Assembly (NCBI GenBank): GCA_964508365.1
Contig: CAZDTP010000028.1
Location: 1-46,906, forward strand
DNA length: 46,906 bases
Reading direction: 5' to 3'
Source: an uncultured archaeon
GTDB lineage: Archaea > Asgardarchaeota > Lokiarchaeia > Sigyniarchaeales > SOKP01
Numbering within the stretch: the stretch's first letter is position 1; each line of letters opens with the position of its first letter. Below are positions 28,306 through 46,906 of the stretch, one piece after another. The position numbers were made by a program, and so were the translations under genes. Under the pieces are notes generated by a model. The model searched no databases, was not told the origin of the DNA, and saw only the letters and a list, made by a program, of their open reading frames with translations.

Positions 28306-30411
28306 CTATGAGTTAAGTAAGGTTTCTATCGCTATTTTCTCCGGTTGAAATACTGCCGTGCTTATTCCTGTGGTATGGTCTTTACTTACGATTATTTTGT
28401 GCGTATTTATGTCTGATGGAATTGCTGTGTGAGTAATCAAGAAAATTTGTGAAAATGTTTTTGACTTTATCAAATGCTTGAGTATTCTTTCTCGTCGAGT
28501 TTCATCAAGTGCTGCTAGTGGCTCATCCAAAAGAAGAATATCAATTTTAGGATTTTTTTTTGGTGATTCTTTTGTGGGGCGTATTTTACTCATTAATTCG
28601 GAAATAGCTAACCGAAGTGCCATCCCTAACGCCGTTCTATCGCCTCCAGAAAGTACTTCGACTGATTCGTGAACGCCATTAAAATTATTTTTGATTTTGA
28701 GCGAAAGTCCGGTCTTTTTTGAACCAATTAAATCCAGAAGTAAATCGCTATACTGACCAGAGGTAAAATCTTTTATGTACTTATTTGTCACCAATGCAAT
28801 ATTTTTTACTAAACGTTTTACGACCATATATTCTGTTACAAACCTTCGAACGAATTCTTTTGCTTTATTAATGTGATCTAGTTCAATTTCAAAGTCTCCA
28901 ATATTCTTCTCCAGGTTGTTCATTTTTTTTATTTCCTCGTTCAAATCTGCAATTCGTTTAAGATTTTCTTCAAAATTCTTTTGATTTTCTATTGATTCTT
29001 TAATAATAGCAGTTAATTCAGTATTGAGCTTTTTCTTCTCAATTGAAAGCATTTTTATGTTGGCAGGAGTTATATCAGTAAATTTAGACTTGTGTTCTGC
29101 TAGAAAGAGAGTAGTTTCTCCCTTGATCTTTTCAAAATCCATTGCTTTTTTTTGGTAATTCTGATAATCATTCCTTAATCCTTGAATCACAGTAATCTGT
29201 TTTTTGATATTATCAAGTCTGTTTTGTTTTTCTTCTATATCCAAATCCAGATTTTCAATAATTTTCGTAATGGAATTAATTTTTTCTTGATTTATTTCAA
29301 TTTCTTTGTTAAAATCACCGACCATCTCGTCATAATGCTCTCTTGTAAGCTCATTTTGGCAAGTAGGGCATCGAGCTACTTCTGCATTATCCTCGTTCGT
29401 AGTAAAAAGTAAGCTATCTTCCAACTGCTTTAACATTTTTTTATTATCATCAATTCGACCTCTTGTCTTCCCTACACCTTTGTATGTCGCTTCTCTTCTT
29501 TTATCTAAAATATCCTTCTGTGATTTAGTATCGTTTTCTTCTTTAACTAAAAGCGATATTTTTTCATTAATTTTAGATAAGGCTTCAAAGTCTTTGATAT
29601 TTAATTTAGTATTTTCGATTTTTTGTTGGAAATCGCTTTTGTAAGCGAGATAATTTTCCTCAAGTATGTTTTGTTGGTCATAAAGATTCTCTAAGTTCGA
29701 AATTAAGTCATCTGATGGAAAATCTGAAATTTGTTGTTCATGTTCTTTTTTTGCGTTGCTATTATCAACAAGTTTTTTTTCTAATTCTGCGTTTTCGAGT
29801 TCTGCATCAGTGATATCCTTTTTGATCCGCTCTATTGGAACTCTTTTCTTTTCTAATTTTTCTTTATTAAATTTAACATCTTTAGATTCTCTATCAAGAA
29901 AAGCGAGCGCATCATCGATTATATTGAGTCTGAATAAATCGATTATCATTTCTCTAAGATCAGCCCCCTTTTTGTTTGCCAAATCCTCAACTTCTCCCTG
30001 TCTAACGAAAACAGTGTTTAATGCTTGCTCAGTAGAAATCTCAAAAAATTTTTCGATATCGAACTTCTCAACTTCTCGATAAGACGATGTAACCCATTCA
30101 AACAATTTCGTAGTAGTGGCTCCAGATCTACTCCACTTACGATAAATATTATATTTTATTGTATCAATTGTAAAATAGATAGTTAGCTCGGCTTTAGATT
30201 CTCCGTAAGTAATAAAAGAGGCTGCATTTCTTCCACGAAATATTTTAGGTCCGAAAAAAGCGAATAAAATCCCTTCTAAAATAGTAGATTTGCCGTATGA
30301 ATTCTTTCCACTAATTAATATTAATCCTTTGGGAAATTCTTTTTTATTCTTTGGGAGAGATAATTGTTTATATCCCATGAAGTTTTTAAATATTAGGGTT
30401 GTAATTTGCAT
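28306..30411 (-). CDS. rad50: Rad50/SbcC-type SMC ATPase with short coiled coil
   Basis: Walker A GKNSYGKST, Q-loop VFVRQGEV, zinc hook CPTC, signature LSGGDR, Walker B/D-loop LLLDEPLAALD, H-loop LITH. Confidence 0.9.
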   Translation of the reverse strand: MQITTLIFKNFMGYKQLSLPKNKKEFPKGLILISGKNSYGKSTILEGILFAFFGPKIFRGRNAASFITYGESKAELTIYFTIDTIKYNIYRKWSRSGATTTKLFEWVTSSYREVEKFDIEKFFEISTEQALNTVFVRQGEVEDLANKKGADLREMIIDLFRLNIIDDALAFLDRESKDVKFNKEKLEKKRVPIERIKKDITDAELENAELEKKLVDNSNAKKEHEQQISDFPSDDLISNLENLYDQQNILEENYLAYKSDFQQKIENTKLNIKDFEALSKINEKISLLVKEENDTKSQKDILDKRREATYKGVGKTRGRIDDNKKMLKQLEDSLLFTTNEDNAEVARCPTCQNELTREHYDEMVGDFNKEIEINQEKINSITKIIENLDLDIEEKQNRLDNIKKQITVIQGLRNDYQNYQKKAMDFEKIKGETTLFLAEHKSKFTDITPANIKMLSIEKKKLNTELTAIIKESIENQKNFEENLKRIADLNEEIKKMNNLEKNIGDFEIELDHINKAKEFVRRFVTEYMVVKRLVKNIALVTNKYIKDFTSGQYSDLLLDLIGSKKTGLSLKIKNNFNGVHESVEVLSGGDRTALGMALRLAISELMSKIRPTKESPKKNPKIDILLLDEPLAALDETRRERILKHLIKSKTFSQIFLITHTAIPSDINTHKIIVSKDHTTGISTAVFQPEKIAIETLLNS

Positions 30412-30414
30412 TTT

Positions 30415-31731
30415 TCATACCTCCTTCTCCTTTTCCATATATTTTAACGCATATTTAAGAGCATTCATTCCCAATTGGCTAAGTTTATCCACATTAAAAT
30501 GAGATTGATCTTCTGTTAACTTCTCTGAAACAAAAGATTTAAATTCTTCATCCGGATGTTCTAAAATATAGTCTTGAATTATACCTGCACTTATATCATC
30601 CTCAAGAGTTTCAGATATATCAAAAATCTTCCAAATAATCTGTAAGATATTGAATTTATCTGGTTGAGAAAAGCAATCCCTTCGTATTCTCGACATCATT
30701 TCATTTATTTGCCAATTTTTTTCTATTGTAATCTCTCCAGTAAAATTAAATTTTAGTCTTGCAGCAGTTTTTGGGTTAAATCCATTAATTGAAATAAATG
30801 GATTTAGTTCTTTGTAAATTAGAAGCTCTAAATCGGAGGAGGATTGATCAGGATTAGCTACAATTTGCACGATTTCAAAAGATCTTTGTAGAAGAATATT
30901 TGTAAAGACTCGCTCTACATTTAATAATTTAGTTTTGTCATCGATGTTTACTATTAAATAACCCTGGTTTTCATTAACTTCTTTAAAATTCATTGGAAGC
31001 AAGCTTCCTGAGAAATATTGATTTTCAGATAATTTTTTTAATCCATGTTCGTGCCCTAAAGCGATATAATCGTAATTGAAATCATTAGAATTAATTTTCC
31101 GATGTAATGTGTTATCACCAGCTGAACCATGAGCAACTGCAATATTAATATATCCATTGTCTTCAATCGGATGTTGATTTTCTATCCAATTATCATAAGC
31201 TGCTTCATAGACTTCGTAATCTTGAAATTCAAAATATGGATATAAATAGAATCGCACTTTTTTTGTTGGAAAATCCAACTTTAATGGTTCATTATTTTTA
31301 ATAGCGTTCAATAGGTCTCTTTGTTTATAATAATAAAGATTTGAATATCTTTCGACTTGAATGTGTGATTCAAATGGTGTATATTCATATCCTCTGAAGA
31401 TTCCATGATTCCCTTCAATGTAAATGAATGGGATTTGATTATCCGTATTATTAAAGAAAATATCTAAACCTTCCTTAAATGCTCTTCTCGCAGGTTCTGG
31501 TGGAGGATATGAACTATATTTAGAAGGGTGGTGAAACATGTCGCCACAATGAACAAGAAAATCTAAATTCTTGATTTTGGAGATGTCTGTCATGACTTTT
31601 AAAAATGAATCGTAGATTTCTTGTTCGTAAGGTTTTGAGTAATTTTGAATCGCCCATTTGTTTATAACACCTCTTCTTGTTCGATAACCTAAATGAGAAT
31701 CCGATATTTGTACAATTTTTACCATATGCAA
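30415..31731 (-). CDS. mre11: Mre11/SbcD nuclease
   Basis: Metallophosphoesterase motifs DSH, GDMFH, GNH, AHG and GHEH all intact; 3 nt from rad50. Confidence 0.9.
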   Translation of the reverse strand: MHMVKIVQISDSHLGYRTRRGVINKWAIQNYSKPYEQEIYDSFLKVMTDISKIKNLDFLVHCGDMFHHPSKYSSYPPPEPARRAFKEGLDIFFNNTDNQIPFIYIEGNHGIFRGYEYTPFESHIQVERYSNLYYYKQRDLLNAIKNNEPLKLDFPTKKVRFYLYPYFEFQDYEVYEAAYDNWIENQHPIEDNGYINIAVAHGSAGDNTLHRKINSNDFNYDYIALGHEHGLKKLSENQYFSGSLLPMNFKEVNENQGYLIVNIDDKTKLLNVERVFTNILLQRSFEIVQIVANPDQSSSDLELLIYKELNPFISINGFNPKTAARLKFNFTGEITIEKNWQINEMMSRIRRDCFSQPDKFNILQIIWKIFDISETLEDDISAGIIQDYILEHPDEEFKSFVSEKLTEDQSHFNVDKLSQLGMNALKYALKYMEKEKEV

Positions 31732-31765
31732 TCCTTATCTTTTTTTCACATAAAATAAATAAACA

Positions 31766-32947
31766 TTATTCCCCTAATACTTTATGTCTCCATTTCTGAG
31801 TATATTTTTTTGTTTTTTTATTATATTGTAATTCTAAAAAAGCAGCTTCTAGCTTATTATATTCTGAGGTTAATAAAGTACTTGCTTCATGAGCTCCTAC
31901 AAGGCAAAGGGGATAACCTCGTGGAGCAAATGGAATTAGATTTTTAATAATGTGTAAAGCATCTTTCGTATCTAAATCGTCACAAATATCAAACCTTAAA
32001 GCAGAGCTATCTTTTTGCAGTCTTGTTATATATGCTTTACTTTTTGTGTACATTGAAAGATCTGGCATATCCACAAGAAAATTCTTGTTTTCATATAATT
32101 CTGACCAAATTGGCAGTAAAAAATTGCCCTGAGCATCTCTTAACCTGCAAGTCTTTGAAAAGCTATAATATTTTATCTTGTATGACTGAATAAATCTGTA
32201 AAAAAATTCTGTAAAAGCGGTTGGAGGAAAAATATGCTGTCGGAACATTTGAATTCCATCTCCAAGGAACACTACGTTTTCATTTTTGCCCCAATTACTT
32301 ATTTCTTTAATTCTGACTAGTGTTTTTAGTATCTCGTCAGCTGTTCTTATCCTATCTACAACATGCCCTAATGTTGGATAATAGAAAGCGTGAGAGTTAA
32401 TGTGATCATTTATTTTTTTTTTATAAGTTGATTCGTACCATTCATCTAATTTATCAATTTTATCTTTTAAACTACCTACATAGAAGTCTCGTTTAATGGT
32501 TTTTACAAAATTTTCGATTACTGTTTTATAAATAATAAGCTTATGCTCGTTGTCTTCAATATATGAAGTAATAGGTTTATACATTATCTTTTCTTTTTGA
32601 TATTCTCCATTTTTAAAAGTGATTTGACATTCTCCAAATTTAAATGACGCAAGTTTTGCATAAGTTCCACTAAAAGTATTTGAGCTCTCATCAAAACCGA
32701 TGATTTTGTAATTATCGTGTACGTAATTCATAGATTCCTCCCCGATTATAAGATGCGGCATTTCACTAAATAGTAGATTAGTATTTTTTAAACTCTCATC
32801 ATTGTCAAATTTATCCGTCTCGAGTTCGATTTTCTCTTCTTCACTCCACTTAGCTCTTCTTTCTTGAATATATTCTTTAAATTTTTGAACTTCTTCGTCA
32901 ATAGATATATCAGGTCTTTTTTCAAATGACTTCTCTAGCGAGATCAA
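31766..32947 (-). CDS. nurA: Divergent NurA-family nuclease
   Basis: IIGFDES (compare DGS), FLGDG, SFSKT and GYPLCLVGAHEAS (compare GYPxxLxxAH); lies between herA and mre11. Confidence 0.72.
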   Translation of the reverse strand: MISLEKSFEKRPDISIDEEVQKFKEYIQERRAKWSEEEKIELETDKFDNDESLKNTNLLFSEMPHLIIGEESMNYVHDNYKIIGFDESSNTFSGTYAKLASFKFGECQITFKNGEYQKEKIMYKPITSYIEDNEHKLIIYKTVIENFVKTIKRDFYVGSLKDKIDKLDEWYESTYKKKINDHINSHAFYYPTLGHVVDRIRTADEILKTLVRIKEISNWGKNENVVFLGDGIQMFRQHIFPPTAFTEFFYRFIQSYKIKYYSFSKTCRLRDAQGNFLLPIWSELYENKNFLVDMPDLSMYTKSKAYITRLQKDSSALRFDICDDLDTKDALHIIKNLIPFAPRGYPLCLVGAHEASTLLTSEYNKLEAAFLELQYNKKTKKYTQKWRHKVLGE

Positions 32948-33005
32948 TTCGAAATTAAAAGAAATTATTTGTCACCTTTAGTTTTTTTTATATTTTATCT
33001 TATAA

Positions 33006-34754
33006 TTATGGAAGCGAGGTAGGTGGGGGAGACATTCCTGAAGACGCGACTTTTTCTGCAAAATTTTCATAAAACCTTTTAGAGTGTTGTTCAAAATAAT
33101 CATCATATAGAGGAATTTTTAATTTTTGAAAATTGGTTAGCCAAATTCCAGATATTAAAGCTATCCCTCTAGTTCCCGTTAACGATTCTAAATCGCTATG
33201 CTGGATGCCCCCTCCTAATGTATTGGCTGCAACAGCTTTTTCTTTTTCAGATCTTAAAGGTAAATTAATAACGGTATTCATATTAGATAAAATTGTATCA
33301 TCTATGGGTGAATACTGCTGTGAAATCACTTCTAACCCTAAATTGAATTTTCTTCCTTGGCGCGAAATATCTTTAAAGACATTATTATATCTCATCATTT
33401 CAGGCCGTAAGATGCTTGGAGCTTCTTCTATTGTAAAGATAATAATTGGTAATTCTGACGGATCTTTAACGGTTGTTCCGGTTTTTATATAAACATTTTT
33501 CAAATTATCTTTATAATTTTCATAAAAGTTTTTGGGCAAATTCAGCTTTAATTTTTTTTCAAGGGTGACAAGATCCGAAGACGATTTTAGCGATTTACGG
33601 ATATCAAACAATGTTCTAGCCAGGATGCTATTAAAAAGGAATTGTTCTAAATCGGATATCATGGACGCATTGAAAATAATTATATTCCCTTTTTCCAGTT
33701 TTAACACGATTTCTGGAAGTTTGCTTGCGGCATTAGATTGGAACATGTCAGAATACTCCAACCAATGCATTCTTCGCCGTATCGCAGCCATAGTTTTTTC
33801 GTCATGTCCTCCTGGAGGACGATAACCATCGGTTAATAAATTTTCGATATAATTCTCTTGGTCACTTCTAAATGCAGAATAAATCGCTCCAACTTGAAGA
33901 TCATTAAAGGACCCTGTTGCAAAAAGGTCTTCTGGTGTTATTTCTTGATAACTTACCAGACACGGTTCTGCTAGGCTCTTTAATTCTGCCGGTGGTACTC
34001 CTTTATTAGGATAGAGGTAAAACCATGAACCAAATAGATCTTTATTGTAACCTGATGTTTTACATATATCATTAACTCCATATTTAATACATCCTAAAGC
34101 ATACTCATCATGCATGTCTATAGCAAGCATGGAGATTTTAGTCCCTTTCTCTCCAAGAATTATCTGAGCGTTATGTTGTAACAAACCGTCTACAAAAACT
34201 TGATTTAAATTTGATTTCCCCATACCTGTAGCACCTGCAATAAAAAAGTGATACATTAAATATTTGAAGGGAAAATAGACCTCTACTTTTTTTTCAGATG
34301 CTAAATTACCCATAAAGATTCCATCAGGAGGGAAAATATATCTCAAATCTTCATGGATGTCGCTTTGATCCTCTGAAATTTCCATAGTATGAGGTTGAAG
34401 TGTTTTATTTTCCATCAAATCTTCAATTAAAAAGAATACATTGGTTACATGACTCTTTACTTCTTTTGTATTTTTATCTTCTTCGATGCAGAGGATAGGG
34501 CGGCCTTGAATAACATATTGTAATTCTGATTCTAATTCTGCCTTGATGTAATCTGTTATTTTAACATTTCTTAATTTTTGGCGCGTAAATATATAGTCTG
34601 ATATTGTTTGTTCACTAAGGATCTGAACAATTATGGTATATAGCTTATTCTTACTATGATCTTCAGCATTCAATTTTAAAAAACCATGAAGATGAACATA
34701 GTTTTTGTAAAAAATTTCAATTGTACTTTCTATAGGATTTATTCTAATAATCAT
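33006..34754 (-). CDS. herA: HerA-family ATPase/DNA translocase
   Basis: Walker A AGATGMGKS, IDMHDEY, Walker B IEEAP, RQGRKFNLG and ISQQ. Confidence 0.85.
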   Translation of the reverse strand: MIIRINPIESTIEIFYKNYVHLHGFLKLNAEDHSKNKLYTIIVQILSEQTISDYIFTRQKLRNVKITDYIKAELESELQYVIQGRPILCIEEDKNTKEVKSHVTNVFFLIEDLMENKTLQPHTMEISEDQSDIHEDLRYIFPPDGIFMGNLASEKKVEVYFPFKYLMYHFFIAGATGMGKSNLNQVFVDGLLQHNAQIILGEKGTKISMLAIDMHDEYALGCIKYGVNDICKTSGYNKDLFGSWFYLYPNKGVPPAELKSLAEPCLVSYQEITPEDLFATGSFNDLQVGAIYSAFRSDQENYIENLLTDGYRPPGGHDEKTMAAIRRRMHWLEYSDMFQSNAASKLPEIVLKLEKGNIIIFNASMISDLEQFLFNSILARTLFDIRKSLKSSSDLVTLEKKLKLNLPKNFYENYKDNLKNVYIKTGTTVKDPSELPIIIFTIEEAPSILRPEMMRYNNVFKDISRQGRKFNLGLEVISQQYSPIDDTILSNMNTVINLPLRSEKEKAVAANTLGGGIQHSDLESLTGTRGIALISGIWLTNFQKLKIPLYDDYFEQHSKRFYENFAEKVASSGMSPPPTSLP

Positions 34755-38862: not shown

Positions 38863-38923
38863 ATCACATTTTTCTTTAAATTTTTTTTGTACTCTCTCAA
38901 CTTCGAGTTGATATTTCTTAGTT

Positions 38924-40117
38924 TTATTGTTTCTTGATTTTTTTTATTTCTTCTTTTATATTTTCTTGAAGATTCTTTACTTCACGCATTTGTTTACCAA
39001 TTACATCTAAATCTCTTTTTAAAGGACTAGTTTCTGATCGCTTTTCTTTCTCTAAGTCCCTCCTAATTAAATTATACGACTTTATCTGGTTGATATTATT
39101 TATGATATACTCTGTCACATCATTCCTGTCTGTTTTAATTCGTTGCATAGTATCTAAAATTATCGTAATATTATCAATAGAAGTCATCCAATAGCTCAAA
39201 TTTTCGTTCTCTCTTAAAGAATCAATAGCTTGATCGATAAATTCTAAAGCTATTAAAAATACATTTTCAGAGTTAATTTCATGGGTCTGACTTTTTGAAA
39301 AAGGTTCTAATCCTACTTCATCTAAAATATCGGAACTATAGTTAATTAAAATGTTTTCGATAGATAATTGATGTTCAGGAACATCATCTTTTGGATTGAT
39401 TTCTGTGATTTCTGTCACAAGTTTGAGTTCGTCCAACTCAATTTGAGTAATCAATGGAGTGAAACGCACTTGAAGGTGCTTTTTTCCATAAAATTCGTTT
39501 CCTATGCGTATTATCTGAGTGTAGTTTTGTATAAAATCTTCTCCAATGGGGGCGAACAAAACTCCCTCTGAAGAATCAAGCTGAAGCAACAACGGAATAA
39601 TCCTTTCTTGCTTTATAGCACCAGTTACAAGAATTTTTTGCCACGGAGTTAATTCAGGGAGGCCGTTTAATGGATTATCTACAATTACCCTTACTTTATC
39701 TTGAAGACCATTTATCTTTAAATTATCTTGCGTAATCTTGGCAATATCTTGATTTGCTTCTAATATTACGATTTTCCCTTTAGGGGCTAACTTATGTGCA
39801 AGTGCGGCAATATATCCACTTTTAGCCCCTAGGATAAGAAGATCGTCATCTTCTTCTAATAATAACTGTTGTAGCATAATTGAAATCATATGCGGAGCAG
39901 ATATAGTTCTAAGGGTTTCGGGGTTCTCTCTATTCAAGTAAAATAAAACTGGAGCATCAGTATAAATTTTAAAACGGGAATGTAATTCATTCGGTATAAA
40001 TTTCTTTAGAGGCACATCCAAAAAGGCTTTAACTAATCGTATATCTCTCAAGTACCCATTATAAATTAGGGTAAATAATAGCTGAATTTTTGACCGAAAT
40101 AATTTGCGACTCTCCAT
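38924..40117 (-). CDS. Protein-L-isoaspartate O-methyltransferase-like protein with C-terminal helical extension
   Basis: TISAPHM, LILGAKSGYIAAL, PWQKILVTGA, LFAPIG and VRFTPL; about 170-aa C-terminal extension. Confidence 0.75.
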   Translation of the reverse strand: MESRKLFRSKIQLLFTLIYNGYLRDIRLVKAFLDVPLKKFIPNELHSRFKIYTDAPVLFYLNRENPETLRTISAPHMISIMLQQLLLEEDDDLLILGAKSGYIAALAHKLAPKGKIVILEANQDIAKITQDNLKINGLQDKVRVIVDNPLNGLPELTPWQKILVTGAIKQERIIPLLLQLDSSEGVLFAPIGEDFIQNYTQIIRIGNEFYGKKHLQVRFTPLITQIELDELKLVTEITEINPKDDVPEHQLSIENILINYSSDILDEVGLEPFSKSQTHEINSENVFLIALEFIDQAIDSLRENENLSYWMTSIDNITIILDTMQRIKTDRNDVTEYIINNINQIKSYNLIRRDLEKEKRSETSPLKRDLDVIGKQMREVKNLQENIKEEIKKIKKQ

Positions 40118-40217
40118 GTAAACAACAAGATAATGATAAAATTTATAGTTATTATATCTTTTTATATTAAAATATTCGATCTTCGTAATTATGTTACAAC
40201 TTTAGGTTTTTACTTTT

Positions 40218-40799
40218 ATGTTTGTTTTAGATGCATCAAACATTAAAAATGCACGGATTACGATATTTTTGATAACTTTCAATACGCTCCTGTATCTTTT
40301 TTTCTCATTTGGTTTCGAAGATGTATTTTATTTATTAATTCAAATCAATAGTAAAGTGGTCTATGATTTAGAACTATGGCGTTTAGTAACATCAATGTTC
40401 CTACACGGAGATGCTCTACACCTTTTCTCAAACATGGTTTCTCTATTGATTTTTGGATCGTATATTGAACTCAATTTTTCAAAGTATAAATTTGTCGTGA
40501 TATACTTTATTTCAGGTTTTTTAGGAAGTTTGTTTACTGTATTTCTTTTACCTCTAAACACGCTTAGTTTGGGAGCCTCTGGCGCAATCTTCGGGTTAAT
40601 AGGGGCTGCTCTATCAATTTCGATTGTAGAGAGAAACAATCCTTTAATTATTTTAGGATTGATCTATGCTTTTTACTTCGTGATCACATCTTTTTCACCT
40701 GGAATCAACTACTTTGCTCATATTTTTGGTTTATTAGGAGGTTTTTTGTCTTCACTTATTCTAAGAGAAAATAAGAAAAAAATTGATTATTTAAAATAG
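40218..40799 (+). CDS. Rhomboid intramembrane serine protease
   Basis: WRLVTSMFLHG...HLFSNM, GASGAIFG (Ser) and AHIFG (His). Confidence 0.93.
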   Translation: MFVLDASNIKNARITIFLITFNTLLYLFFSFGFEDVFYLLIQINSKVVYDLELWRLVTSMFLHGDALHLFSNMVSLLIFGSYIELNFSKYKFVVIYFISGFLGSLFTVFLLPLNTLSLGASGAIFGLIGAALSISIVERNNPLIILGLIYAFYFVITSFSPGINYFAHIFGLLGGFLSSLILRENKKKIDYLK

Positions 40800-41583
40800 T
40801 CAGAAGCGTCTTTCTTGTCGTGGTCTTGTATATCGCATATCATATTTTTTGGGTAGATTTTTTCTGGTTTTGGTATAAGAAAATATTGCGTTTTGATATT
40901 TAAATCGTAGGTCGCTACAAAATTCTGATGGAAATAACATTATTTAAAGAAAAATGTGCGACAAGAAAGTCTTATGTCCGAATAAAGGACTTGAAAAGAA
41001 AGAAACATAAAGGTGATTTTCAAAAACTGGTATTGAGATGACCGATAATGGCTACCCAAACATGCATCGTTAGTAATGATGGTGTGTGAAGCTTTGGGGA
41101 AAATGTACCTTCAGCATTTAGCTATAAAGTGGTCTGAGGGGCTAGCCAAGGAGCCTAAGGGAAACTAACGTGAAGGTGCGATAAACCTCGTTATTAAAAA
41201 TCGGCGAAATGTAGCTGATACGCCGAGACCAAAAAGGTGAGTTGCCGGGTAGAAATGGTATTTTTTCATTTCTTTGTCATCCATTGCGCAACCGGGGGAA
41301 AGTGCCTCCCTAAGGGCTCTGCTGAACATCGGATATAAGGAACTTGGTAAACCCAATAAGTCCCATATATGTATGTGTTATGGTATCCTGACCGTGAGGA
41401 AAGGTGAAGATTTAGTGGGCAGAGGATGCTGGAGAAAGCGAATGCCATGCTGTAATGGTATGGATAGGGCTGTAGTCTTGGTTGAACTACAGAGATACCC
41501 AACTTGAAAGGGTGCTGACTTCCTAAACAGGTCTCAACGAAAGAAACATATTGAAAAATCTTAACTGGAGGTGAAGTTAGACG

Positions 41584-43083
41584 ATGTGTGAAAGCATTGA
41601 ACAGAACAAAGGGCGTGTGTTAGATTGGGATAATATCTAATGGGATATTCCCAGACTACACGTAAGACGGCTTCAAGAACGAATCTTTCGAGTAACCCGT
41701 GATAAGGACTGGGCGAAGGTTAAGAACCTTCAGAAACTCCTTGTTAGATCACATTCTGCGAGGCTCTTGGCTGTTAGAAGAATCACGCAGGAAAATAAAG
41801 GCAAGAATACGCCGGGAATTGATGGACAGATATACGCAACTTCTAAAGCTCGTTTAGAATTACTTAAGGACATCCGTCAAACCAATATATTTAATTACAA
41901 ATGTAAACCGCTCAGACGTGTATATATTCCTAAAAGTAGCGGAGATAAGCGACCCTTAGGGATTCCAACGGTTAAGGATCGAGTTATGCAAATGCTCGCG
42001 AAGTTAGCTTTGGAGCCTGAGTGGGAAGCTCGGTTTGAACCCCATTCGCACGGTTTCAGACCGGGACGGCGATGCATGGATGCTATTTGGCAAATCTGGC
42101 ACTCTATTCGGGTAGTAAGAATGTTTCAAAAGAGTGAATGGATTTTGGATGCGGACATTTCTGGATGCTTTGACAATATTAAACACGATGCATTGCTTAA
42201 AAGAATTCCCGTATTTCGGGAACCAGTAAGGAGATGGCTAAAATCAGGGATAATTGAATTCGGAAAATATTTTCAGACAAAAGCGGGCACACCGCAAGGT
42301 GGAATTATAAGTCCCTTACTCGCAAATATAACTTTGGATGGCATGGAACGACTCTTTGGAGCGGAAAACTCCAAGGGTAATTACACCGCACCAGTTCATA
42401 GAAGAGGTGATAATAGGAGGCTTAATTTAATTCGATATGCGGATGATTTTGTGGTGACGGCACCGTCGAGAGAAAGGATCGTAAGTTATGTGCTTCCGAA
42501 GCTTAGAATCTTTCTTAAAGAAAGAGGAATGGAGTTAAACGAAGCCAAAACGAAGATCGTGCATCGAGATGAGGGATTTGATTTTCTTGGTTTCAGTATC
42601 CGTCAATATTACAATAAAACTCGAGGAATATGTTTAGCAAAACCTTCTAAGAAAGCTGTTAAACATCATTTAGAAAACATTAAAATAATGATTTCAAAGA
42701 ATAAACAAATGAAAGCAGATGACCTAATCTCTAAATTAAACCCGATAATTAGAGGCTGGGCTAATTACTACTGCTACAGTAGTGCAAAAGAAACTTTCAA
42801 TTACATTGATTATCGAATATGGAAGATGTTATGGCAGTGGTGCTTACGACGCCATATAAATAAGGGAAAACAGTGGATACGACATCGATATTTTATGAAT
42901 TTCGGTAAAACAAGATGGATTTTTGGAGAACGAAAGGAAAATGTGTTATTGTTTTGTCGTTCCTTTCGAGCGGGTGTGAAATACACACCCGTAAAGGGAT
43001 ATAATAGTCCGTATGATGCGAGTTTGCATGAATATTGGAGTAATCGTTATGGTAAATCTTGGCGGGAAACAACGCCTATGTGA
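41584..43083 (+). CDS. ltrA: Group II intron reverse transcriptase/maturase, interrupted by in-frame TAA at 41638-41640, no HNH domain (possible pseudogene)
   Basis: GGAGGTGA then ATG at 41584; WDNI*W...VRRLQERI N-terminal region, TPGIDG, RPLGIPTVKDR, DADISGCFDNI, GTPQGGIISPLLANI, YADD, FDFLGF, X domain LNPIIRGWANYY; ends after SPYD...YW. Confidence 0.9.
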
Positions 43084-43101
43084 TCGATGGTTTTGAGGCG
43101 C

Positions 43102-43177
43102 GAGCCCCGTGCGGGGAAACTCGCACGCGGGGTTCCTAAAAAAGGAAGAGGATAGCAATATCTTCTCCTTATTTAAC
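43102..43177 (+). ncRNA. Group II intron catalytic domain V and branch-point domain VI
   Basis: 34-nt GAGCCCCGTGCGGGGAAACTCGCACGCGGGGTTC with AGC triad and GAAA tetraloop; D6 stem with GCAA loop and an unpaired A seven nt from the 3' end. Confidence 0.93.
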
Positions 43178-43491
43178 TTAATTTGATTTTGAAGAGAATT
43201 TTTTGATCTCCTAAGCAAGAAATTTGATAAAGATGCTTGTTTAATCATAATGAATGTCTCTAACGATTTATCTCTTGAAAGAAATCCTCGATCTCACTAC
43301 GAATCTTTGACCATGGAACAGGTAATCGACTTAAGAAAGAAATTGATTAGACATTTGAATATGGTTATTAGCCTGCTTTTCAATTAAACATCTGATTATA
43401 TTAGCATAGAAATTCAATTTGGTCCCTTTCCTTAATAATAACCTTTTAATATATATATTTTTAAGACTATACACTTCTGCAAAATTTAAGA

Positions 43492-44655
43492 ATGATGAAG
43501 AAACAAATAACAAAACGCCAGCATTGGAATCCCAGAATGCATTTAAAACATTTTGCAATAAATGGTAATATCTATGTTTATGATAAAAAAACTATGAATG
43601 TAGAGTTGAGATCCATAGAAAATACAGCAGTAGGGAAGTGGTTTTATGATAGGGATAATAGCATTGAAAACAAATTAAGCAAAATCGAAAGTAATGTGGA
43701 TAGAATTTTTTTAAAAATAATCAGAACTAAGCGCATTGACAATTTAACAATTGAAGAAAGAAAAAATCTTAACGAGTTTATGGTATTGCAAGATTATCGA
43801 ACACCGAATAGTAGAAATCAGTATGAAATGATATATCACGAACACTTAAGAGTATTTATAAATTCGATGAGAAATGGTGAAATCGATGAAAATTTGTTAC
43901 CAGATGGAATGCCTAAGGAATTATGGAAAAATATGCCTGAACCAAGGGAAAATTTCATAAAATTCCTTCAAAAGATAAAAGAAGACTTTAACTATTTTGC
44001 TGAATTCAACAAAGAAAGTGCAATAAGAGTAACAAACATGATCATCAGGGGTATATTACCTAGTAGGATCAAGTTATTTTCTAAATTAAAACTTAGGTTG
44101 TTTATAAACTCATCTGATGCTGACTTCCTCACTTCAGATCATCCTTTATGTCGTTATAATCAATACATGATGGATTCATTTGGTCATATTACTGATAAAG
44201 GAATAGGATACAATTCAAAAGGCATACAATTTTTTTATCCGTTAACTCCAAAATTGTGTTTAGCATTTGAAGATGGAAAAACATATGAGATGTATGAAGA
44301 TGTGACGGCGGTGGATCATGAATTCGTTAATTTCGTGAATGCAAGGATTATTCAGAACTCCAAACAGTGGCTTTATTCGCAAACTAACAGTTTTAATTTT
44401 GTAAATAACTTTCTTGGAGATTACCCACATTTTAGAAATTCTGATATTTTATTTGGATTATGGAGAATACCTAAAACCGATTTAGAAAGAGCTATTTGTG
44501 AACATTTCTACGGAAAAGAAGCACGAAGGAAGCTCGAAAATTATGTTAATCATCTAATCAAAAAAGGGGCGACCAAACAAGAAGTTGAACAAATTTACGC
44601 TCAATACGATTTAGAATACAAAATGGCATTAGAAAATGGTCAAATGCAGAACTAA
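43492..44655 (+). CDS. DUF4238-like protein
   Basis: N-terminal RQHWNPRMHLKHF (compare HYVPxxYLxxF) and FLTSDHP, PLTPKLCL motifs. Confidence 0.72.
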   Translation: MMKKQITKRQHWNPRMHLKHFAINGNIYVYDKKTMNVELRSIENTAVGKWFYDRDNSIENKLSKIESNVDRIFLKIIRTKRIDNLTIEERKNLNEFMVLQDYRTPNSRNQYEMIYHEHLRVFINSMRNGEIDENLLPDGMPKELWKNMPEPRENFIKFLQKIKEDFNYFAEFNKESAIRVTNMIIRGILPSRIKLFSKLKLRLFINSSDADFLTSDHPLCRYNQYMMDSFGHITDKGIGYNSKGIQFFYPLTPKLCLAFEDGKTYEMYEDVTAVDHEFVNFVNARIIQNSKQWLYSQTNSFNFVNNFLGDYPHFRNSDILFGLWRIPKTDLERAICEHFYGKEARRKLENYVNHLIKKGATKQEVEQIYAQYDLEYKMALENGQMQN

Positions 44656-44737
44656 AATTTTTTAAATTCCTCAAATTATAAGAATTAATTCAGTTCTGAT
44701 TTATATCTTTTAATTTTTTCCCTTGTTTCTGCAGTAA

Positions 44738-45151
44738 GATTCAATTAGACTCATTTCAGTCGACTATACTTATATATCTGAGTGGAGCAAGATATCGGAA
44801 AAACTCGAAAAGTTTTACCAGTCGGGAGATCGAATGTTATTAATTGTTTTATTGGGTCAGACTGAAAAACACATTAAAAACTTTAGAGAGAGTTTACAAA
44901 AAGCTACTGAGGACGACGACGGTTCATTACATCTTGAAAATGTAAAAATATTAACCTCAAAAGAATACAATGAATTTCTCGGATTTGACGGGCACCATGC
45001 GAAAACTTTTGAGCTTTATCAAAAATTAGCCTTCAACATTTTCAGCTCAAAAAGATTGCTTTATGATGCAGCCTTACAATCTAATCTTGTTGCTAAAGAA
45101 TTAGCGGCTCTTAACAAAGACTGGATTAATACCTATCTAAGGCAACGCTAA
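44738..45151 (+). pseudogene. Probable 5'-truncated gene fragment (ORF-track start at 44834)
   Basis: Frame stays open 32 codons upstream of the Met (DSIRLISVDYTYISEWSKISEKLESFYQSGDR) with no start codon, and reads like the tail of a larger protein. Confidence 0.45.
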
Positions 45152-45213
45152 TTAGTGAAAGTTTAAATACTTTTTTTATATATATTTTTGTAGATTTAAG
45201 GTATTAAATCCTT

Positions 45214-46428
45214 TTGGGTTTTAAATTGAAAATTAATCATTTAATTAAGTTAGTATCGGAAGCTTCTAATGGACAAGACAAATTCAAAGAAGGGACTATA
45301 GGATTTAACGGTTATGGTTTTGTTTTTAGGGAGTTCGATTATAACTCTAAAGATTCCTTTGTTATTGGGGATGGAAGCAGTAAGCTTTGTTCGATTGGTG
45401 CTTTTAGGGACCTTTACGAAAGGTCTTTAGAACGCCTAGACTCTCTGGAGGATTTAGCAGAAATAGTAGAGTACGATCGAGACTCTGATTTATATTTTGG
45501 TGGAGCAATAAAAACATTAGTTCCTGACGTAGAGTTTGGAGGTTACGAAGACTTATATTGCGTATGGATGTTCGTTAAGACCCCTCAAGGCAAGATGTTT
45601 CCAACAACCTTTTATCACGGAAAATCTGGGGCTTCGGTCGGAGCTTGGTCTCCTGATTATCGCGCTTTTCTTTTTGCAGAAGAAAGGACTCTTCCTCAAG
45701 ATTTTGAATCGATTGTAAATTTTAGCCCATTTAATTTTACAAAAATAGAATTAGAAGAATTTATCGAGGCTCTTAAACTTGCTTTAAATAAGGTGCCTAT
45801 TTCTGATTTTGAGGGCGTTTACGAGGACGATTTTGGAAAGGAATTAATGAGGATAAAGTCAAGCGAGCCTTTCGTAGAACCTCTGGAAGTCGAACATGAG
45901 AAGATCAATACGTGGTCGTATTCTATCATGGGAAACGACGAGGCATGGGATTTTTCTTCTGATTTTGTACATATTATGCTCGACTATCTTACTCCAGAAG
46001 AAGACGATAAATATCCTAGAGAAATTCCAAAACAACTGTTTAAAAGTTTAATCGAAAGAGCATACGATCGATTAATCGCTTACGCTTGTGAAAAGAAGTC
46101 TCGGTTAGCGTTTATGATTCTTGGTCGTTCTTTAATGCTACACAAATGTAAAATTACAGAAGAACTTCGCCAAACCATTCTTAAATATTCTGATTGGGAT
46201 TACGAAAAAGATCAGTTAAAAGACGAGAGAGACCGCAAGGAAAGAAAAGAATTTCTAAATGATTTCCGCGAGAAGATTAAAGCCTACGACGGATCAAAAG
46301 TAGTGAAAGTCCCCTTCTATACCGTTACTCGGGTTATCAATGAGAAGAGAGAGAAAGGAGACACTACCCCAGTTAACCGCCAAAATATCGATTATTCAAT
46401 CGAAAATTCTGGGAGTACATTAAATTAA
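45214..46428 (+). CDS. Hypothetical two-domain protein
   Basis: 404-codon ORF; the C-terminal half begins WSYSIMGNDEAWDF, loosely DUF4259-like. Confidence 0.65.
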   Translation: MGFKLKINHLIKLVSEASNGQDKFKEGTIGFNGYGFVFREFDYNSKDSFVIGDGSSKLCSIGAFRDLYERSLERLDSLEDLAEIVEYDRDSDLYFGGAIKTLVPDVEFGGYEDLYCVWMFVKTPQGKMFPTTFYHGKSGASVGAWSPDYRAFLFAEERTLPQDFESIVNFSPFNFTKIELEEFIEALKLALNKVPISDFEGVYEDDFGKELMRIKSSEPFVEPLEVEHEKINTWSYSIMGNDEAWDFSSDFVHIMLDYLTPEEDDKYPREIPKQLFKSLIERAYDRLIAYACEKKSRLAFMILGRSLMLHKCKITEELRQTILKYSDWDYEKDQLKDERDRKERKEFLNDFREKIKAYDGSKVVKVPFYTVTRVINEKREKGDTTPVNRQNIDYSIENSGSTLN

Positions 46429-46771
46429 TTAAAAGAATTGACCTAAGCAGACAACATCCGATCTTCCAAAGCGAAAGAATGCCTGGCGCCCCTAGATCTC
46501 AATATTTCGAGGGTTTTTTAAGAATGTATCCGATGGATGCGATTAAAACGATGAAAGAGGGAGAAATTTGTTAAGTTTTTTACTAATCCTCGTAATACCC
46601 CAAAGCAGACTACGAGAAGATTTTTACCTTTCACGGTTAGGAATTATGGGAATTTGCAGCAGCAAAAAAATCGATTCGAAATGCGATATGTGTCCATTCT
46701 CTAATTTTTACACTAATTTATAATTTAAATATTCTCAGAACAAATAAGCGTGATGAACAAACATATTGAAC

Positions 46772-46906
46772 TCACAATTTCTTTTTCCTTTTACTTTTCA
46801 TTGCTAATTCCATTGAAAAATCTTGTGGGCATATGGCATTTAATGGGCAAGAATCACATTTAGGATGAATAGGTAAACACACTTCTTGACCAAATCGTAC
46901 AAATAA
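46772..46906 (-). CDS. nth: Endonuclease III (HhH-GPD) C-terminus, partial at window edge
   Basis: LFVRFGQEVCLPIHPKCDSCPLNAICP gives the C-X6-C-X2-C-X5-C FCL 4Fe-4S motif; stop at 46772-46774; not in the ORF track. Confidence 0.85.
   Translation of the reverse strand, partial: LFVRFGQEVCLPIHPKCDSCPLNAICPQDFSMELAMKSKRKKKL

Follow-up and report, generated by a model that had tools for sequence, protein, structure and literature searches.

A structurally complete, probably stranded group II intron on a strain-specific island of a Lokiarchaeial Asgard archaeon

The window analyzed here is a stretch of 46,906 nt from an uncultured archaeon (GTDB lineage Asgardarchaeota; Lokiarchaeia; Sigyniarchaeales; SOKP01), covering positions 1 to 46,906 of contig CAZDTP010000028.1 in the GenBank assembly GCA_964508365.1, which comprises 149 contigs and 4.07 Mb and is referred to below as G000. 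On its forward strand, positions 40956-43177 hold a full-length group II intron of 2222 nt, recognized by its Rfam matches and by the same terminal bases in copies from the same and other genomes, with a G+C content of 41-43% as against ~31% for the contig. The intron contains a gene for an intron-encoded protein (IEP), a reverse transcriptase (RT) with a maturase domain, and this gene is interrupted early by an in-frame stop codon. We consider it probable that the element is a structurally complete, IIB-like intron of a Lokiarchaeial lineage, and that this particular copy is most likely stranded, its IEP having been cut short by a recent CAA-to-TAA change.

The intron opens with GTGCG (40956-40960), and the Rfam model of domains V and VI (RF00029) aligns to 43100-43177 with a score of 52 bits (gathering score 40), the end of the model falling on base 43177. 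Both boundaries are those proposed in an earlier sequence-only reading of the window, which had also named a covariance-model search as a check on them. For domain I, RF02012 (group-II-D1D4-7) scores 48.7 bits over 41042-41164 (gathering score 34). Among at least nine copies, similarity at the 3' side ends exactly after ...TTATTTAAC, and at the 5' side it reaches only ~15 nt upstream of GTGCG, into the common motif TATWTAAAGAAAAAW. An RNAalifold consensus of eight copies gives 177 pairs in domains I to III, 24 of them with compensatory changes, and delimits domain I (40962-41346, with CAAG/CUUG closing and a GUAA-capped stem), domain II (41352-41419) and domain III (41422-41535). Downstream of these lies a domain IVa-like hairpin (41561-41580) with a 6-bp stem kept in the eight copies, which adjoins the IEP start codon on its upstream side and displays the Shine-Dalgarno-like GGAGGUGA (41567-41574) in its loop; the ATG is preceded by GGAGGTGA in this conserved loop, and the hairpin is weak when folded as a single sequence. 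Domain V (43102-43135), as the sequence-only reading had it, is a canonical 34-nt element with an AGC triad (43103-43105), and it has a GAAA loop and a fold z-score of -6.4. Domain VI (43137-43177) ends in AAC at the base where homology among the copies stops. The earlier description of a bulged A at -7 before AAC stands in part: the candidate branch point, A43171, lies 7 nt from the 3' end and is unpaired in both the minimum free energy (MFE) and centroid folds of the domain, but in the MFE fold a second A lies opposite it and the two form a 1x1 internal loop, which tells against a clean bulge. Without its open reading frame (ORF), the ribozyme amounts to ~820 nt.

The intron's exon-binding sites (EBS) and the intron-binding sites (IBS) of the flanks can be assigned together. 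EBS1 (AUUUUUU, 41260-41266) lies in the loop GTATTTTTT of the hairpin AGAAATG/CATTTCT (41251-41273), where ATTTTT(T) pairs with exon AAAAAT and adds a G.U pair at -7, covering positions -1 to -7. EBS2 (UUAAA, 41194-41198) sits in an 11-nt internal loop (41191-41201) and pairs with positions -9 to -13. The 5' exon target (40943-40955) is thereby divided into IBS2 (TTTAA, 40943-40947, -13 to -9), a spacer A at -8 and IBS1 (GAAAAAT, 40949-40955, -7 to -1). A candidate EBS3, A41158 in a CCUA-A-GGG internal loop, stands opposite the first base of the 3' exon, T43178. The EBS1 pairing had been identified correctly before, and it is borne out by pairing and covariation in 11 copies; EBS2 and the candidate EBS3 go beyond what had been read. 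In the window copy, all three sites fit the flanks perfectly.

Across copies, the EBS/IBS pairing is far above chance. In the 12 EBS1/IBS1 and EBS2/IBS2 pairs of 11 independent copies, 94.7% are paired, compared with 83.3 +/- 2.0% after shuffling, a level that none of 500 shuffles reaches, and sliding the register by one to three columns lowers the pairing to 51-74%. Changes on both sides are found in 13 cells of this alignment, affecting five pairs. At position -1, all four Watson-Crick combinations with EBS1 are present among the copies, and EBS2 and IBS2 co-vary in three variants (TTAAA/TTTAA, TTATA/TATAA and TGAAA/TTTCA), with 96.4% of cells paired. In the eight copies with both sides known, the candidate EBS3 forms six Watson-Crick pairs with the first 3'-exon base (two A-T and four T-A), one wobble and one mismatch, and only two states are represented. 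Some copies fit less well, and this weighs against the assignments: one EBS1 mismatch occurs in each of the contig-12 copy of G000 (C12) and the related copies L044, L045 and L095, and EBS2 of L045 fits only with a one-base shift. Other EBS2 registers in the 11-nt loop were dropped, because only loop positions 4-8 co-vary with exon positions -13 to -9. A one-base-shifted EBS1 register is better for the contig-12 copy, yet the common register was kept on the basis of the changes in L007 and L048. An additional EBS2a-IBS2a pair has been described for IIB1 introns (PMC8643678); in this family position -14 is an A in nearly all copies, and hence there is no variation with which to probe it. Because the Rfam ends, the guide pairings, the EBS3 candidate and the consensus fold agree, the predicted splice junctions, between 40955 and 40956 and between 43177 and 43178, are well supported. 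The predicted ligated exons of the window copy would join ...GAAAAAT to TTAATTTG or, with the exon stretches given differently, ...AAAGAAAAAT to TTAATTTGAT.

The IEP gene (41584-43086, plus strand) runs from an ATG at 41584 to a stop at 43084-43086 and comprises 499 codons and the stop. Its translation contains RVT_N, RVT_1 (with YADD at residue 285) and GIIM, and a Pfam search detected no HNH endonuclease domain in it. The RT and X/maturase domains are therefore present, but their frame is broken by an in-frame TAA at codon 19 (41638-41640), which the earlier reading had overlooked; its word "complete" holds for the ribozyme and fails for the IEP gene. Codon 19 encodes Gln in 10 related DNA copies, six of which have intact 499-codon ORFs, and the contig-12 copy has CAA at this position. 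Among 52 full-length IEP homologues, the position is occupied by Gln in 38, His in six, Asn in three and Glu in two, and by a stop in none. At columns that are at least 95% conserved in the homologues, the window IEP shows one further private deviation, compared with a median of four in intact homologues, and because the protein is otherwise so little damaged, the TAA would be recent or else a strain variant or a consensus error of this metagenome-assembled genome. No other RT gene was found in the G000 assembly, which is scored 100% complete. Since the premature stop lies in the sole RT gene of the assembly and the second copy of the intron has no ORF, the window element is probably no longer autonomous.

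That second copy was found by counting copies in the genome, a check that had been proposed for the intron: only two D5/D6 matches exist in G000, and the other one marks an 821-nt copy on contig 12 (C12:2-822, minus strand), which is 95% identical to the window copy, lacks the ORF and fuses intron positions 1-738 to 2138-2222. Outside G000, no fewer than 13 genomes of the same order carry the intron family at 80-95% nucleotide identity, embedded in unrelated contigs; a figure of 80-92% applies to the further copies seen on unrelated flanks in other genomes. Because tblastx detected no flank homology or synteny between intron copies, they appear to be independent insertions. Copies with identical ends thus occur at unrelated sites that share a target sequence, as copies of a mobile element would. 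The ORF deletions have different breakpoints (738/2138 in C12, ~864/2105 in L008 and 971/2043 in L010), and the sequences compared indicate that ORF-less derivatives arose independently, at least three times. At the protein level, sediment metagenomes contain many homologues that share 75-90% identity with the IEP, and the family includes dozens of intact 499-aa proteins. All named homologues down to 54% identity come from Promethearchaeota/Lokiarchaeota, one of them from the original Loki's Castle data set, and HNH-bearing relatives appear at ~55% identity. Among species-representative genomes, the nearest relatives outside the Asgard archaea share 44-48% identity and belong to marine Gammaproteobacteria and to a small number of other bacteria. 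By these comparisons the intron appears to belong to a lineage established in Lokiarchaeia/Promethearchaeota.

The copies of this family also show varied architectures. Two of them are twintrons: in L047 (G076:C58), an inner element at ~297-2525 has its own D5/D6, ends in G and directly follows the EBS3 loop in domain I of the outer intron, and in L049 an inner element at 572-2877 lies within the outer domain III. In L019/L081 (position 1656) and L101 (G028), a related intron lies inside the YADD codons of the RT gene of another intron, with ...GCTGATGATT running directly into GTGCGAC. L022, L014 (reverse strand), L017, L100 and L105 carry short degenerate 5' fragments of the family behind a TATWTAAAGAAMAAA motif, some with a mutated GTGCG, and these fragments are probably relics of older insertions. 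Additionally, L046-L050 have ~88 extra nt between the IEP stop and domain V, which the window copy, L044 and L045 do not have.

As far as the evidence goes, the intron is IIB-like and its RT is of the chloroplast-like (CL) type without an endonuclease domain. The best solved relative of the IEP is the T.el4h RT (PDB chain 6me0_C, E 3e-112), with IIC RTs and LtrA at ~1e-45, and T.el4h/Th.e.I3 combines a IIB1 ribozyme with a CL1 RT (PMC8643678). The domain I model RF02012 also matches Methanosarcina acetivorans, one of the control genomes. A clearly present EBS2 and a ribozyme of ~820 nt speak against class IIC. A CL1 assignment would be more tentative, as it draws indirectly on the best PDB match and on the RF02012 match in M. 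acetivorans.

The host of the intron is, judging from its gene content and flanks, a Lokiarchaeial (Promethearchaeota) Asgard archaeon and no contaminant, in line with the Asgard origin that had been proposed. On the same contig, ~6 kb upstream, lies the gene for HerA, whose homologues at 93-59% identity come, wherever a source is named, from Asgard archaea, for the most part Lokiarchaeota/Promethearchaeota. An ESCRT-II EAP30 match above the cut-off is present in G000 and in none of 14 control genomes. A Pfam search for profilin gave no match in G000 or in any control genome and is hence uninformative, and 16S rRNA (RF01959) was not found in the assembly. In the vicinity of HerA, four same-strand ORFs (28306-34754, minus strand), which include HerA (DUF87) and a Rad50-like ATPase (AAA_23/SMC_N), look like an archaeal herA-nurA-mre11-rad50-type cluster, the Pfam check having covered HerA and the Rad50-like ATPase.

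The intron itself is intergenic and resides on a strain-specific island of 5.97 kb (40774-46746) at the 3' end of a rhomboid gene. Window segments 38902-40773 and 46729-46906 are conserved in relatives from the same genus, where they are adjacent to each other; 33 of 41 genomes of the genus share the flanks, and in five relatives the homologue of 40773 is joined directly to that of 46729. An imperfect 18-nt direct repeat, ATTCTMAGARMAAATAAG, stands at both ends of the island (40756-40773 and 46729-46746). Besides the intron, the island holds a DUF4238 gene and two ORFs without assigned function, and no integrase was recognized on it. One island ORF (45214-46428, plus strand) encodes 404 aa and has a second copy in G000 (G000:C108:2254-3423); searches of Pfam, PADLOC and Atlas gave no match for it. 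Of 153 genomes of the order, 46 have members of its family, often more than one and often with in-frame stops; in this the family behaves like a mobile-element gene. As for the intron alone, its own empty site was not found, since homology within the genus stops at 40773 and resumes at 46729 and yields the empty site of the island only; a search of the genus for the 3' flank of the intron returned no real matches.

The sequence-only reading had stated that its claim would fall if the segment proved to be bacterial contamination or a misassembly. The higher G+C content of the intron and its bacterial nearest relatives outside Asgard could be taken in that sense, but the sequences bordering the island on either side have homologues in other genomes of the genus, the same intron family recurs at 80-95% identity on unrelated contigs of the same order, named IEP homologues above 54% identity all belong to Promethearchaeota, and the exon bases match the guide sequences of the intron inserted between them. 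We regard bacterial contamination, or a misassembly joined to an archaeal contig, as extremely improbable, and it can be considered excluded for practical purposes. A different question is what the family homes to. The 15-nt AT-rich target motif, TATWTAAAGAAAAAW, lies upstream of relatives at many unrelated loci, in the window copy as TATTTAAAGAAAAAT with T as the first base beyond the intron, and it resembles a TATA box (TATWTAAAG). It could be proposed that the family is specialized to home into host promoters, TATWTAAAG being an archaeal TATA box, a reading that seems to us improbable; in its full form, to which we give equally little credence, a Lokiarchaeial, endonuclease-less CL-type lineage would have specialized on TATWTAAAGAAAAAW, with mostly ORF-less passengers mobilized in trans. 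All examined copies are indeed intergenic and stand behind the same TATA-like 15-mer, the downstream gene being co-oriented in 6/8 copies and the upstream gene divergent in 5/7. These counts are small and not significant, however, and the 350 sites matching the family motif in G000 show no bias, the next gene having the same orientation at 81 and the opposite one at 79. Moreover, the distance from an occupied site to the start of the next co-oriented gene is 30-316 nt, mostly too far for a TATA box to serve, and IBS2 and IBS1 account for the conservation of the motif by themselves, because it pairs with EBS1 and EBS2 of the intron. If promoter homing were true, the family would colonize intergenic spacers that bear promoters and would be to promoters what the IIC introns are to terminators.

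A reading of the element as stranded, which we prefer, would involve the following course of events. In intact relatives, as established group II intron biology suggests, the 499-aa IEP would bind the domain IVa hairpin and assist the ribozyme in lariat splicing through the equivalent of A43171; the resulting ribonucleoprotein would then reverse-splice into DNA sites read by EBS1, EBS2 and EBS3 and, lacking an endonuclease, would prime cDNA synthesis from DNA ends at replication forks. The window copy was probably acquired either together with the 5.97-kb island or later, when the island already occupied the end of the rhomboid gene. In G000, a recent CAA-to-TAA change at codon 19 would have cut the IEP gene short, and because the IEP is truncated and no other RT gene is assembled, both the window copy and the ORF-less contig-12 copy are most likely stranded, with ribozymes that look intact and no maturase for efficient splicing or mobility. 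The earlier expectation of many possible homing sites is correct as to the sites, 33 unoccupied positions in G000 exactly matching IBS2, IBS1 and IBS3 of the window copy, but the assembly contains two copies nonetheless, a number that fits a disabled or slow element.

Several points count against this reading: splicing, branch point and mobility are predictions, the TAA might reflect strain variation or an error in the consensus, and intact copies might be missing from the assembly, as repeats assemble poorly and the contig-12 copy ends 1 base from a contig end. One alternative is that the element has stayed autonomous and active as a retroelement. The TAA would then be an error of the assembly or the consensus, or a minority variant, or else readthrough or an unassembled intact copy would get around it. 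The gene is undamaged save for codon 19, with YADD present and one private change at conserved columns, EBS1, EBS2 and EBS3 match the flanks perfectly, and G000 is a draft of 149 contigs in which the second copy abuts a contig end. On the other side, the stop is present in the sequence as given; the first in-frame ATG, GTG or TTG past it is TTG 41767, and a start there would remove most of RVT_N; only two copies exist despite the free perfect targets; and a genome scored as complete has yielded no second RT gene. An active element is therefore a rather unlikely alternative, though a more serious one than promoter homing, and stranding of the window copy remains the reading that we favor.

The absence of an endonuclease domain has a parallel in RmInt1 of Sinorhizobium meliloti (class D), a mobile intron whose IEP has RT and maturase domains and no endonuclease (En) domain. 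An IEP of this RmInt1-like kind implies priming from replication intermediates. The IEP class of RmInt1 differs from that of the window IEP. Another related system is Th.e.I3/T.el4h of Thermosynechococcus elongatus (PDB 6ME0/6MEC; relative EcI5), the best solved relative, aligned over IEP residues 5-434, which shares IIB-type recognition with a 5-bp EBS2, an EBS1 and what in the window intron would be a separate, candidate EBS3. The window intron differs from it in its archaeal host, in its short AT-rich intergenic target motif, and in an IEP of 499 aa, with no HNH domain detected, compared with 562 aa in the solved T.el4h chain.

In the archaea, Methanosarcina group II introns of the CL1A/CL1B, C and D types are known (Dai and Zimmerly, 2003, as cited in PMC8919778). 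Like the family described here, they combine archaeal hosts, the joint occurrence of RT-encoding and ORF-less copies, and introns nested in introns; the nesting is paralleled by the relatives L047 and L049, which are twintrons, and by L019, which interrupts another IEP gene at its YADD codons and so follows a pattern of homing into intron ORFs that Methanosarcina is known for. Methanosarcina belongs to another archaeal phylum, and the window copy is unnested, with an intergenic target.

The sequence-only reading had valued a full-length Asgard intron for its rarity, a claim that does not hold. Asgard group II introns have been reported (Vosseberg and Snel, 2017, PMC5709842), Asgard IEPs of types ML, D, E, CL2A and "a separate CL type" have been distinguished (Vosseberg et al., 2023, PMC9887622), and Asgard group II introns including those of Lokiarchaeia have been described (Mattick et al., 2024, bioRxiv 10.1101/2024.12.10.627823); the window intron is an element of that kind, from that archaeal group. 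In addition to the dozens of intact homologues, the named ones are already annotated in NCBI as group II intron reverse transcriptase/maturase of Promethearchaeota. The window intron is well resolved and an ordinary representative of a kind already known; it adds little to the question of intron origins, because it is intergenic and its maturase gene is broken. Intergenic, recently acquired on a strain-specific island and with bacteria as its nearest non-Asgard relatives, it does not go beyond the published record as to how spliceosomal introns arose. What it offers is a cleanly dissected Asgard intron, with exact predicted ends, the guide sequences EBS1 and EBS2 and a candidate EBS3, a 15-nt target, ORF-less derivatives that would depend on help in trans and a maturase that seems freshly disabled, which should be of use in annotating such introns in Lokiarchaeial genomes and in picking intact relatives (L044, L045) for splicing and mobility assays. 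Whereas the published Asgard work, in the portions available, covers proteins and distribution (PMC5709842, PMC9887622, bioRxiv 10.1101/2024.12.10.627823), the present analysis extends to the ribozyme, both boundaries, EBS1, EBS2 and the candidate EBS3, as well as to the target motif, the derivatives without an ORF and the nonsense codon that one copy carries.

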